IMG/VR virus record: IMGVR_UViG_2778261634_000009
Coordinates: 1-38,423 of that record
Length of the DNA: 38,423 bases
From: a virus
Taxonomy: Duplodnaviria; Heunggongvirae; Uroviricota; Caudoviricetes
Strand: one strand, 5' to 3'
Positions 4,683 to 34,802 of the stretch are shown here, piece by piece (position 1 is the first letter of the stretch; every line of letters starts with the position of its first letter). The position numbers and the translations under genes are program-made. Under the pieces are notes generated by a model, which made no database searches, was not told where the DNA came from, and was given only the letters and a program-made list of their open reading frames with translations.

Positions 4683-4815
4683 TTTTGGGAACTCCTGGCT
4701 GATTAAGTATGTCGATAAGGCGTTTCCATCCATCACGTAATTTACGTGTGATTCGTTCAAGTAAAGATTCGGAAGGGCAGCCAGCAACAGGCCACCCTGC
4801 AATGGCATATTGCAT
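4675..4815 (-). CDS. cIII: CIII protein (inhibitor of FtsH-mediated CII degradation)
   Basis: MQYAIAGWPVAGCPSESLLERITRKLRDGWKRLIDILNQPGVPKNG matches lambda CIII as remembered; AAGGAG Shine-Dalgarno 6-7 nt upstream of this ATG; the track ORF 4675..4917 is an upstream extension. Confidence 0.8.
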   Translation of the reverse strand: MQYAIAGWPVAGCPSESLLERITRKLRDGWKRLIDILNQPGVPKNG

Positions 4816-4997
4816 GGTGTGCTCCTTATTTATACATAACGAAAAACGCCTCGAGTGAAGCGTTATTGGTATGCATATAAAAAAGCCCTCACACTGGAGG
4901 GCAAAGAAGATTTCCAATAATCAGAACAAGTCGGCTCCTGTTTAGTTACGAGCGACATTGCTCCGTGTATTCACTCGTTGGAATGAATACACAGTGC

Positions 4998-7861: not shown

Positions 7862-8158
7862 ATGGAACAAACAAGTTACAGCAAACTATCACAGCGCGAC
7901 GTTGATCGCGCAGAAACAGATTTACTCATCAACCTGTCAACGCTTACCCAGCGCGGTCTGGCAAAGATGATTGGCTGTCATGAATCGAAGATAAGCAGAA
8001 CGGACTGGAGATTTATTGCTTCGGTCTTGTGTGCTTTCGGAATGGCATCAGACATCAGTCCGATTAGCAGGGCTTTTAAGTATGCGCTTGATGGACTCAC
8101 AAAGAAAAAACGCCCGGCGGCAACCGAGCGTTCTGAACAAATCCAGATGGAATTCTGA
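7862..8158 (+). CDS. cII: CII transcriptional activator
   Basis: 98-aa ORF whose C-terminus KKKRPAATERSEQIQMEF matches lambda CII as remembered; HTH in the middle; immediately downstream of cro. Confidence 0.85.
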   Translation: MEQTSYSKLSQRDVDRAETDLLINLSTLTQRGLAKMIGCHESKISRTDWRFIASVLCAFGMASDISPISRAFKYALDGLTKKKRPAATERSEQIQMEF

Positions 8159-8190
8159 GGTCATTACTGGATCAATCCACAGGAGTAATT

Positions 8191-8835
8191 ATGACATACG
8201 AAAATGACAAATTCCAGGTTCTGAAGAGCATGAAGGTGCCAGATGATTTTAAATCAAATGGCTTTGTTTATGTGCTTTCGAATGAGTGCATGCCAGGAAT
8301 TTATAAGATTGGGATGACTAAGCATTCACCAGAAGTTAGGGCTAAAGAAATTTCAGCCTCTACTGGCGTTCCTAAGCCATTTAAGGTGATAGCAGCCTTT
8401 CATTCAAATAATCCAGCATCAGATGAAAAACTCATTCATAAAGCCTTTGCAAAAGAGAGGCTTAGTGATAATCGAGAGTTTTTCAAGCTTGAAGATAATG
8501 AGCTTTCTGAATCTCTAAATGAAATAAGGGCGCTGGTTGGCCCTGAAAGAAATGGCGAGACGGCAGAATACGCAATTTACGACGCATTCATTTCTTTTCG
8601 CCATGAAAATGAGCTTGATCTTAATGAGGAGCTTATAGAGCAAGGTCTGGGTAGTGTAGTTGGTCATCTTCCTGCGGTGAAAAATTTCCTTATTCGCGCC
8701 GGAATTGATTACGCGAAGCAACTGATAAGCAAATATAACTCATCGATAGTTATTAATACAGATGGCAGTGTGGTGATGGTTAAGTCTCTTGAAGCCCAAT
8801 GCTTTGATGCGGAGGTTGGAAATGAGCCTGGCTGA
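8191..8835 (+). CDS. T5orf172 / MUG113 (GIY-YIG-like) domain protein
   Basis: 214-aa ORF; GFVYVLSNECMPGIYKIGMTKHSPEVRAKEISASTGVPKPFKV...NREFFKL fits the T5orf172 domain pattern; visibly AT-rich compared with flanking cII and O; 3' end overlaps the O start. Confidence 0.7.
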   Translation: MTYENDKFQVLKSMKVPDDFKSNGFVYVLSNECMPGIYKIGMTKHSPEVRAKEISASTGVPKPFKVIAAFHSNNPASDEKLIHKAFAKERLSDNREFFKLEDNELSESLNEIRALVGPERNGETAEYAIYDAFISFRHENELDLNEELIEQGLGSVVGHLPAVKNFLIRAGIDYAKQLISKYNSSIVINTDGSVVMVKSLEAQCFDAEVGNEPG

Positions 8836-9664
8836 AGTATTTTACCTGCCGAAGAGTGAACCTGTTGAACAGGAGCGAAGAGTGGCTGATATCGATGATG
8901 GTTACACCAGATTCGCTAACGAGCTGCTGGAAGCTATCGCAAGTGCCGATTTAACCGCTCGCCAGTTGAAAGTTATGCTGGCCTACGTCCGGAAAACATA
9001 TGGCTTCAATAAGAAAACAGATCGAATAGCCGATGAGCAAATTGCTCAGTTAACAGGACTGTCAAGGCAGAATGTTAACAAGGCTAAAAAAGAACTGATT
9101 TCAATGAATTGCCTGTTTATGGATGGAAATCAAATCGGTGTAAACAGGGAGGTATCTGCGTGGCAATTCAGCAAGTGTCTCCAAGTTAGCAACTTTGTCT
9201 CGAAGTTAGAGACAAAAAGTGTCTCCAAATTAGAGACACTCAATGTCTCGAAGTTAGAGACACACAAAAGACATTCTTTAAAGACAAAAGAAAATATTAA
9301 TAAACCCCCTATATCCCCCAAAAAAGTTTCTCAGAAGTTCGACCCGCTAGAAACAGAGTTGCCTGATTGGTTATCAGCAGAAACATGGTTGTCGTGGGTT
9401 ACCTATCGCAAGGAGATAGGTAAGTCGATCAAGTCTAAGCAAAGTGTCACTCAGGCTATCAACGTTCTATGCAGAAGTCTGGAGAAGGGATATACACCTG
9501 AAGAAATTATAAACCAGAGCATCGCCAGTGGTTGGCAGGGTATTTTTGAGCCCAAGACTCCAAAGGGGAAATCTCAACCGAGGCCGCAGCATCGAGCTAT
9601 GCAGGAAAACTTTGCCACCAAAGATTACGGACAAACTGAAATGCCTTCATGGGCGCAGGAGTGA
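8822..9664 (+). CDS. replication initiator protein O-like
   Basis: Start at internal Met (GGAGG upstream) of track ORF 8789..9664; N-terminal region LTARQLKVMLAYVRKTYGFNKK... typical of phage O N-terminal domain; iterons embedded mid-gene. Confidence 0.8.
   Translation: MSLAEVFYLPKSEPVEQERRVADIDDGYTRFANELLEAIASADLTARQLKVMLAYVRKTYGFNKKTDRIADEQIAQLTGLSRQNVNKAKKELISMNCLFMDGNQIGVNREVSAWQFSKCLQVSNFVSKLETKSVSKLETLNVSKLETHKRHSLKTKENINKPPISPKKVSQKFDPLETELPDWLSAETWLSWVTYRKEIGKSIKSKQSVTQAINVLCRSLEKGYTPEEIINQSIASGWQGIFEPKTPKGKSQPRPQHRAMQENFATKDYGQTEMPSWAQE
9177..9263. repeat. origin iterons (four about 18-bp repeats GTCTC(C/G)AA(G/A)TTAGAGACA) followed by an AT-rich stretch
   Basis: Four direct repeats at about 9177, 9197, 9221 and 9246, each with internal inverted symmetry GTCTC...GAGAC, encoding the repeated peptide SKLET; AT-rich 9264..9305 follows; lambda-type ori inside the O gene. 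Confidence 0.65.
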
Positions 9665-9666
9665 AC

Positions 9667-10512
9667 ATGACGCTGGATGAAAAGATCTCCCAACTGGAGA
9701 AAAAACTTGCAGAATTGAGTTCTCCGCCAATTGCTATCGAGCATACAGCTGTAGAAATTGGCACTGGCATCTGTGAAAAACATGGTGAGTTTGAGCAGCG
9801 TAACCGTTACTCGACTGGGCCAATTAAGTTTGCCTCAAGACCTAGCGAATGCCCGGAATGCATGAGAGATGAGCTTATTCGGCTACAGGCAGAGAAGATT
9901 AAAATCGACGAGGAATCACGTAAGCGCAATGTCGAGTTTCTGTTGAATAATCTTGATATTCCTGAACGATTCAAGGGTTGCACACTACAGAACTACGAGC
10001 CAGTCAACGACGATGCAAAGAGAGTGCTCAGGGTGTGTCAGGCATACGCCAGCAAATGGCCTGAGAGGTTACAGAAAGGCGGTGGGCTGGTTATGTGTGG
10101 AAAGCCTGGTACTGGAAAGAATCATCTTGCACTGGCTATCGCCCGGCACGCAATTACGGAACATCAAAGCTCAGCTATTTTCACAACGGCGCTGAAAATT
10201 GCCAGAGAATATAAATCAACATGGTCGAAAAACTCCACCCGCACAGAGGATGAAGTGATCCGACAGTTCACTAAACCTGACCTGCTAATTATCGATGAGG
10301 TTGGTGTGCAGTTCGGAAGCGAGGCGGAAAAGATGATCATGTTCGAAATCATCAACACCCGCTACGAGCGCATGAAGCCAACAATCCTGATTAGCAACCA
10401 GAGCAAAGATGAACTGTCTGCATTCATTGGTGAGCGTGTTATTGACAGGATGAATGATGGCGGCGGATGCACCCTTGCGTTTACATGGGATAGTTACAGG
10501 AGCAGAACGTGA
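9667..10512 (+). CDS. DnaC-like helicase loader / replication ATPase
   Basis: Walker A CGKPGTGKNHLA and Walker B LLIIDEVG; follows O directly; start at internal Met of track ORF 9649..10512. Confidence 0.8.
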   Translation: MTLDEKISQLEKKLAELSSPPIAIEHTAVEIGTGICEKHGEFEQRNRYSTGPIKFASRPSECPECMRDELIRLQAEKIKIDEESRKRNVEFLLNNLDIPERFKGCTLQNYEPVNDDAKRVLRVCQAYASKWPERLQKGGGLVMCGKPGTGKNHLALAIARHAITEHQSSAIFTTALKIAREYKSTWSKNSTRTEDEVIRQFTKPDLLIIDEVGVQFGSEAEKMIMFEIINTRYERMKPTILISNQSKDELSAFIGERVIDRMNDGGGCTLAFTWDSYRSRT

Positions 10513-34733: not shown

Positions 34734-34802
34734 AGTTGAAGCCCCAACTGCTGGAACAGTCAGGGCTTCGGTATCGTAAAACCACGCATAGGAATTAACG
34801 AC

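Follow-up and report, generated by a model that had tools for sequence, protein, structure and literature searches.

The gene at positions 8191–8835 (+) of the window, the whole 38,423-nt stretch of viral DNA analysed here, encodes an intact two-domain protein consisting of a T5orf172/GIY-YIG nuclease fold and an orphan acidic domain of approximately 100 aa. The gene is an optional first cistron of a replication module that also comprises the replication initiator gene O and the gene of a DnaC-type loader, and, as judged from sequence comparisons, its relatives stand in the same position before initiator genes of at least five families. Comparison with many empty sites shows that the gene is an insertion. 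We tentatively favour, at somewhat less than even confidence, the explanation that the protein is an early nuclease, co-expressed with the initiator and directed by the protein contacts of its acidic domain.

The feature is ordinary in kind, being a phage GIY-YIG/T5orf172 nuclease gene, whereas its architecture and its fixed linkage to the initiator are unusual. No paper on a GIY-YIG/T5orf172 gene at the cII–O junction, on its family or on its synteny was found in the literature. Few genetic units have been studied as well as the lambdoid replication modules, but the optional first cistron present here has no described function. The wider pattern of such genes before replication initiators is the main addition to the account given in the first-pass annotation of this DNA.

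Locus layout and the encoded protein

The window represents a P22-like lambdoid prophage or phage of E. coli with P22-type structural genes. Rfam matches to the lambda cIII thermoregulator element (4770–4828, −; 88.5 bits) and to the P22 sar antisense RNA (34734–34801, −; 81.2 bits) indicate a lambda/P22 mosaic with an immI region. The order of the early region is repressor, cro, cII, nuclease gene, O and DnaC-type loader. The left neighbour, cII (7862–8158, +; Pfam Phage_CII, 5.1e-35), belongs to the immunity module, which differs among the carriers of the nuclease gene. It is followed by a conserved linker, ACTGGATCAATCCACAGGAGTAATT (8166–8190, +), recognised in alignments with the phages mEpX1 and Bas106; the Shine–Dalgarno sequence AGGAG in this linker (8181–8185) serves the nuclease gene here and O in empty sites.

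The nuclease gene, supported by the ORF, the Pfam matches, the RefSeq annotation and the AF2 model, is the sole ORF of its kind at the locus; it begins with ATG at 8191, encodes 214 aa and is separated from cII by 32 nt. The first-pass annotation had correctly described a 214-aa ORF with the peptide strings that it quoted, located between cII upstream and O downstream, but the start that it gave, 8159, is the base after the cII stop codon. The replication initiator gene O (8822–9664, +; Pfam Phage_rep_O, 4.3e-36; PHROG 678) overlaps the nuclease gene by 14 nt (8822–8835), as had been stated there. O is followed by the gene of the DnaC-type helicase loader (9667–10512, +; IstB_IS21; PHROG 50), for which RefSeq coordinates were transferred from locus L012.

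Two further details of the neighbouring genes were observed. Four 19-nt iterons (TGTCTCGAAGTTAGAGACA and variants, with a spacing of 20–24 nt) are located in O at 9176–9262; they make up a lambda-type ori embedded in the initiator gene, and the peptide VSKLET recurs in their translation. In the loader gene, the N-terminal portion (9670–9941) is a mosaic segment of its own that cannot be aligned with mEpX1 and Bas106, although both of its flanks align with these phages at 88–99%.

No promoter-like site was found in the 32-nt gap upstream of the nuclease gene start. Promoter prediction gave 3 sites with 4.0 expected by chance, that is, nothing beyond chance, and a promoter or terminator of the gene's own was rejected since the predictions were within chance. 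The Rfam search of the nuclease gene region returned no family match. The position of the gene implies early expression from pR, in line with the original proposal; transcription would proceed from pR after N antitermination, together with O and the loader, and the gene would be silent in the lysogen.

The layout bears on the suggestion, also made in the first-pass annotation, that the protein has a defence role. A nuclease that protects the lysogen or excludes superinfecting phages, as a PDC-S57-like single-gene system, would agree with the PADLOC matches to the PDC-S57 model PDLC05041 (4.5e-29) and to PD-Lambda-1 (4e-12). However, the PDC-S57 match is confined to the nuclease domain (profile positions 3–94 of 212), likewise in ten relatives; the gene lies inside the repressor-controlled pR operon without a promoter-like site in front of it, and it always accompanies lytic replication genes. 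A defence function in the lysogen is thus very improbable. The literature search found nothing on PDC-S57.

According to the Pfam search, residues 24–112 of the protein (8260–8526, +) match both MUG113 (PF13455; 5.7e-16, 59.3 bits with a cutoff of 22.3) and T5orf172 (PF10544; 1.4e-15, 58.1 bits with a cutoff of 20). The T5orf172/MUG113 pattern noticed earlier from the sequence alone therefore holds at the profile level, and the lack of a profile match, which had been named as a sign against it, did not occur. The AF2 model (pLDDT 87) indicates that a GIY-YIG alpha/beta fold is present in the 214-aa protein. Profile scores above the gathering threshold, the predicted alpha/beta fold and the catalytic set all agree with membership in T5orf172/MUG113 (GIY-YIG clan).

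Ten residues (Y27, Y38, K39, G41, R50, E53, E79, H83, R95 and E96) are invariant in 40 homologues, R95 and E96 being part of the REFF motif, and the Tyr...Tyr...Arg...Glu catalytic set (Y27, Y38, R50 and E96) is unchanged in all of them. Judging by motif order, this set is probably equivalent to that with R27/E75 in I-TevI and E180 in Odn. The equivalent Glu is required for cleavage in Odn (E180A; PMC8263062) and in SNIPE (E414A; PMC13190303). The protein is predicted to be an active DNase.

As for residues 113–214 (8527–8832, +), which form the orphan acidic C-terminal domain, the predicted order of elements is beta-alpha-beta-alpha, a long helix (160–182), a beta-hairpin and a final helix. 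The domain has no Pfam match at E ≤ 10, no match among PDB sequences and no fold match, in agreement with the earlier statement that this part belongs to no obvious family; among 1.84 G representative proteins, only its own family was found. Residues 101–214, after the REFF motif, have a pI of 4.3 and a net charge of −13. An acidic C-terminal region (pI 4.05–5.07, net charge −6 to −17) was found in 23 of the 24 members examined, the exception being a near-neutral Verrucomicrobiales protein (pI 6.5, net charge −0.9). Family members have this stretch of ~100 C-terminal residues in conserved form, and purifying selection acts on both domains (dN/dS of about 0.11–0.28 for the C-terminal domain). 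The 214-aa sequence contains no Cys motifs of the CxxC type, and no DNA-binding domain was found in it. An identical allele is present in E. coli JNE120393 (WP_047083737.1), annotated in RefSeq as “GIY-YIG nuclease family protein”.

Filled and empty sites

In phage mEpX1, which has the same O allele, cII runs straight into O. The homology of the window with mEpX1 stops at 8196, corresponding to ATG ACA, O's own start in mEpX1, and resumes at 8867; the segment 8197–8866 (670 bp, +) takes the place of 42 bp, namely, O codons 3–16 (AATACAGC...AACTTTGCC). The comparison with relatives lacking the insert, recommended in the first-pass annotation, thus defined the boundaries 8196/8197 and 8866/8867. 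All filled sites that were examined in detail have these two junctions, with which the genome-wide match boundaries agree, and a 111-bp stretch at the right junction is 99–100% identical across all 19 carrier genomes. The replaced 42 bp are identical in all six empty sites examined.

The incoming segment puts the former Shine–Dalgarno sequence and ATG of O to the use of the nuclease gene. The new start of O is supplied by the 3′ end of the segment, where a replacement translation-initiation region (8811–8866, +), located within and 3′ of the nuclease gene end, contains GGAGG at 8811–8815 and ATG at 8822. The new N-terminus of O (15 residues) is MSLAEVFYLPKSEPV in filled sites, and that in empty sites is MTNTAKILNFGRGNFA. 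At position 8186 (−5 from the ATG), all filled sites have GGAGTAATTATG and all empty sites examined have GGAGTCATTATG; this difference places the left recombination boundary at or upstream of −5, within the conserved linker.

No direct or inverted repeats flank 8197–8866, and a transposon-like or repeat-flanked insertion was ruled out on this ground. The GC content of the nuclease gene is 40.6% (38.0% in the nuclease half), compared with 47.1% in cII, 43.9% in O and 47.0% in the window. The gene is therefore AT-richer than its neighbours, as had been claimed, but the deviation is mild: the gene lies at the 6th percentile of 645-bp windows, whose minimum in the window is 35%, and a strong compositional anomaly was rejected.

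The cII–O junction has a match in 1,673 of the 5,426 complete E. coli genomes, and the matches end at 8196 in the records listed from a spread sample of the ranking. The nuclease gene is present in 19 of these 1,673 junctions and absent from about 99%; universal presence at this position with uniform composition, which had been put forward as evidence against an insertion, is not what was found. The recoded 5′ end of O was found only in the 19 genomes with the nuclease gene. The O allele of the window (at least 98% identity over 798 bp) is present in 46 genomes, 19 with a filled and 27 with an empty site, and the nuclease gene is thus dispensable since the same O allele works without it. The description of the gene as inserted stands in view of the empty sites and the sharp boundaries, but not as an idiosyncratic event, as the family holds the same position across many temperate phages.

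Between carriers, which have six or more different cII alleles, the gene copies share at least 98.6% identity. Filled loci have in common a block from 8166 to ~10827 (nuclease, O, loader and Ren-like genes), in which the nuclease gene is leftmost; the cII and immunity genes to the left of it differ, and homology to the window begins among filled loci only at 8166 or 8096. The nuclease gene, O and the DnaC-type loader gene travel as one module, up to about 10827. The O alleles of filled and empty loci are intermingled, and no clear co-conversion gradient was seen in them. With only 33 variable sites and obvious recombination, an O phylogeny does not distinguish gains of the nuclease gene from losses and was rejected as a means of counting gains. 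Other occupants of the cII–O junction include a gene of a DUF2740 family protein, unnamed hypothetical genes and HK022-type putR/orf48 (HK022/O276), indicating that the site is a general hot-spot for accessory elements.

These data are relevant to the main rival of the protein-contact explanation, namely, a free-standing homing endonuclease, to which we give somewhat lower confidence. Such an enzyme would cut lambdoid genomes or prophages that lack the gene at or near the linker and the O start, repair would copy the gene, often together with the adjoining replication module, and the recoded 5′ end of O would protect the carriers from self-cleavage. T5orf172 genes have been proposed as homing endonuclease genes in many phages, where they are located beside essential genes, including replisome genes, at the boundaries of genetic exchange (PMC10448857). 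The nuclease gene lies exactly at the immunity/replication mosaic boundary, its presence is patchy (in 19 of the 46 genomes with one O allele), near-identical copies occur in the at least six cII backgrounds, the junction is identical in every filled site examined in detail, and the 42 bp replaced are invariant in the six empty sites. The intermingling of filled and empty O alleles is also expected from homing, although general recombination predicts the same. In its distribution, sporadic among close relatives and with precise filled and empty sites, the gene thus behaves as a homing endonuclease gene.

The architecture of the protein does not follow this pattern, since no separate sequence-specific DNA-binding domain, Cys motif or Pfam hit was found outside the nuclease domain, and the second domain is acidic (pI 4.3, net charge −13); zinc-finger domains are carried by 87% of the surveyed T5orf172 homing endonucleases (PMC10448857). 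The earlier description of the gene as homing-endonuclease-like is therefore supported by distribution but not by domain composition. In addition, some relatives consist of the nuclease domain alone (Burkholderia phage KL4 and locus L031), the position is kept beside non-homologous N-terminal domains of initiators that the C-terminal type does not track, a clear co-conversion gradient in O is lacking, and lambdoid recombination at the conserved linker accounts for the mosaicism without a nuclease. Should homing prove to be its function, the protein would be a tangible force behind the classic mosaic boundary between the immunity and replication modules.

Among 50,697 phage records, only Bas106 (CurroJimenez; L001, PQ850599) has the gene, annotated as hypothetical. 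Clear plaques and a lack of temperate behaviour on K-12 have been described for this phage, the sole cultured carrier (PMC11990801). Its lysogeny genes look intact. Three Bas106-related isolates without the gene make turbid plaques, and the authors suspect a missing attB (PMC11990801).

The insertion also alters the region of the presumed pO promoter. Its −10 sequence (CATAAT, 8188–8193, overlapping the ATG at 8191) is kept in the window. In place of the −35 sequence present in empty sites (TTGAGT, 17-nt spacer), the insert brings TGGAAT (in the region 8197–8225), so that only a TGn extended −10 remains, and carriers may accordingly have a weaker antisense oop promoter. An oop-like terminator hairpin is located antisense in the 3′ end of cII (8107–8134, −). 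A domesticated, non-cutting T5orf172 regulator similar to CapR, modulating, for example, the expression of O or the displaced oop/pO region, would be compatible with this loss of the −35 region, with the clear plaques of Bas106 (PMC11990801) and with the finding that PLE CapR is a T5orf172-related repressor (PMC10448857). We nevertheless consider a purely regulatory role most unlikely: the catalytic Arg, Glu and both Tyr residues are invariant in the 40 homologues, a DNA-binding domain is missing, and 19 natural lysogens carry the gene.

Association with replication initiators

Homologues with 34–98% identity fall into type A (~214 aa), which includes the protein of the window, and type B (225–238 aa), which has a different acidic C-terminal domain. 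In every context examined, genes of both types are located directly 3′ of cII or of a YdaT-type regulator gene and directly 5′ of the gene in the initiator position. The gene abuts an initiator gene in 19 of 19 E. coli genomes, in nine metagenome or genome loci, in all 11 evaluable Enterobacterales loci and, with an initiator homologue, in 71 of the 79 evaluable best loci of IMG/VR. It also adjoins an initiator gene in loci of Paraburkholderia, Janthinobacterium and a Verrucomicrobiales MAG, where only the nuclease domain is shared, and relatives that have only the nuclease domain in common directly precede the initiator gene in Salmonella phage S107, Proteus phage Brookers and Burkholderia phage KL4.

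The spacing between the gene and the initiator gene is mostly −4 to +12 nt, and the initiators belong to PHROG families 678/2365, 17247/16167, 4617/8540/1032, 3729, 2514 and 9773. Most of the loci examined, some distant ones among them, have the conserved linker ACTGGATCAAT[C/T]CACAGGAGTAATTATG in front of the gene. Some relatives are reduced to the nuclease domain (132 aa in KL4 and 144 aa in L031). The position rule does not extend to more remote T5orf172 proteins of different architecture, one of which, for example, adjoins HamA. An apparent nuclease–O fusion (P0032) was left out since it looks like a frameshifted assembly.

Type A pairs only with O-type initiators, and within type B the type of the C-terminal domain is independent of the type of the initiator DNA-binding domain. 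The idea that the C-terminal type varies together with that of the initiator was accordingly rejected, with no tracking seen within type B. The initiators of phrog_17247 type and HTH_36 type have different N-terminal DNA-binding domains and a common C-terminal domain (phrog_17247 positions 197–273), of which the O protein of the window has only its last ~30 residues in common. The C-terminal type of the nuclease (A or B) may follow the C-terminal domain of the initiator rather than its N-terminal domain.

Most type B proteins end, after a conserved GIYGPxQP, in a peptide resembling the C-terminal tip of SSB, for example, ...SDDSDIPF, ...PDFDDAPF, ...PDFDDNPF, ...VDEPIPF and ...NAPEIPF (loci L008, L011, L020–L028 and L032; proteins P0029–P0040). 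The tip of E. coli SSB is DDDIPF (PMC5872125). The type A protein of the window has no SSB-like tail.

The constant linkage to the replication module also raises the question of an Odn-type weapon, which would destroy the replication origin or replicating DNA of plasmids, satellites or heterologous phages in competition for the same host replication machinery. Satellite origins are cut by ICP1 Odn and related coliphage proteins, in which a DNA-binding domain derived from an initiator is joined to a T5orf172 nuclease (PMC8263062; PMC10448857). Such fusions are also suggested by PHROG 8130 (434 positions), in which positions 11–104 match the N-terminal ~90 aa of phrog_17247-type initiators and positions 181–257 match the T5orf172 domain, which points to Odn-like phage fusions of an initiator-like DNA-binding domain and a nuclease. 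In PHROG 8430 (439 positions), only positions 275–439 are matched by the window protein, which indicates that longer relatives with an unknown N-terminal part exist. For the protein of the window, however, a function of the Odn type is improbable. Its C-terminal domain is acidic and resembles neither the neighbouring O nor known DNA-binding folds; the possibility that it is a copy of the O DNA-binding domain was rejected, as hhalign comparison of the alignments gave a probability of 0.1%, and no RepA_N was found. No candidate target element was identified.

The protein-contact explanation assumes that the acidic domain aims or gates the nuclease, most likely via contacts with proteins and not via DNA sequence. 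It is suggested by the nature of the non-nuclease domain, which is acidic, variable and unlike any DNA-binding domain, and the finding that the C-terminal type within type B does not track the initiator DNA-binding domain argues against the reading of neighbouring DNA sequence. The candidate partner would be the C-terminal part of the initiator or host replication or SSB-interacting proteins. The nuclease would act at the time of replication on DNA engaged by replication proteins, the likeliest substrates being competing or host replicating DNA or the replication intermediates of the phage itself.

This explanation accounts better than homing for the synteny, for the close coupling of the gene to the initiator and for the acidic, variable domain, and the SSB-tip-like tails of most type B proteins also speak for it. 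The same may be said of the matches of the nuclease domain to PD-Lambda-1/SNIPE models, as SNIPE, a membrane nuclease, is aimed by protein contacts of its non-nuclease parts (PMC13190303). On the other hand, the type A protein of the window lacks an SSB-like tail, the conserved position could reflect a permissive insertion hot-spot at a module boundary, and the patchy distribution and sharp junctions suit a selfish element equally well. The absence of the gene from ~99% of the E. coli cII–O junctions and from 27 of the 46 genomes with the same O allele means that a role in replication, if any, is non-essential.

A broader and more speculative proposal, which we put forward with low confidence, is that these genes represent a phylogenetically wide, undescribed class of T5orf172 nucleases encoded by an optional leading cistron of temperate-phage replication modules, in which an acidic adaptor docks the nuclease on replication proteins, one subtype using a mimic of the SSB tip, and in which action at forks or origins would be set by these contacts and not by DNA sequence. 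If the nuclease is tethered to replication proteins, temperate phages would have a novel means of manipulating replication or competing for it, and phages would be represented in the emerging picture of nucleases that protein contacts direct. Both possibilities, tethering and homing, are directly testable since the cultured phage Bas106 and near-isogenic filled and empty prophages exist.

Comparison with known systems

The window protein is a member of the T5orf172/GIY-YIG superfamily and has neither the PDC-S57 nor the SNIPE or Odn-type architecture. Its sequence identity to Slx1, the I-TevI catalytic domain and the T4 Seg/EndoII class is 9–13%, and it differs from such proteins in the partner domain, which is RING in Slx1 and Zn-finger/HTH in I-TevI. 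The putative homing endonucleases of the ICP1 Gp53/Gp121/Gp130 type share with it the Pfam nuclease domain, a free-standing gene beside an essential gene, an exchange boundary and a patchy distribution among close relatives (Barth, Dunham & Seed 2023, PMC10448857). Unlike them, the window protein has an acidic orphan domain and no Cys motifs, and its gene occupies one fixed position in temperate phages.

Odn (ICP1 Gp88) is likewise a T5orf172 nuclease with the conserved catalytic Glu and is tied to replication initiators and origins (PMC8263062). Its targeting domain, however, is a RepA_N copy of the initiator of the satellite and is located N-terminal to the nuclease (PMC8263062), whereas the extra domain of the window protein is C-terminal and unrelated to O.

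Among the PADLOC models, PDC-S57 gives the best score for the nuclease domain (99.6 bits) and has a similar length (~212 aa), but the C-terminal half of the model remains unmatched, and the genomic context here is a prophage replication module rather than a defence island. The PD-Lambda-1 profile is matched at positions 355–450 of 496 only, that is, in the nuclease part, and Pfam detects no DUF4041. Membership of PDC-S57 or PD-Lambda-1 was rejected, the nuclease domain alone being matched.

With SNIPE/PD-Lambda-1, the window protein shares a closely related GIY-YIG/T5orf172 nuclease domain (PADLOC, 4e-12) and the combination of a conserved nuclease with a variable non-nuclease part, which in SNIPE gives specificity by protein contacts (PMC13190303). 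SNIPE itself, at ~490 aa, is a defence protein of the bacterial inner membrane and contains a transmembrane segment and DUF4041 (PMC13190303), whereas the window protein, of 214 aa, is soluble and phage-borne and has neither of these elements. If the acidic domain does dock the nuclease on replication proteins, the window protein and its relatives would be the phage-side counterpart of protein-aimed nucleases such as SNIPE.
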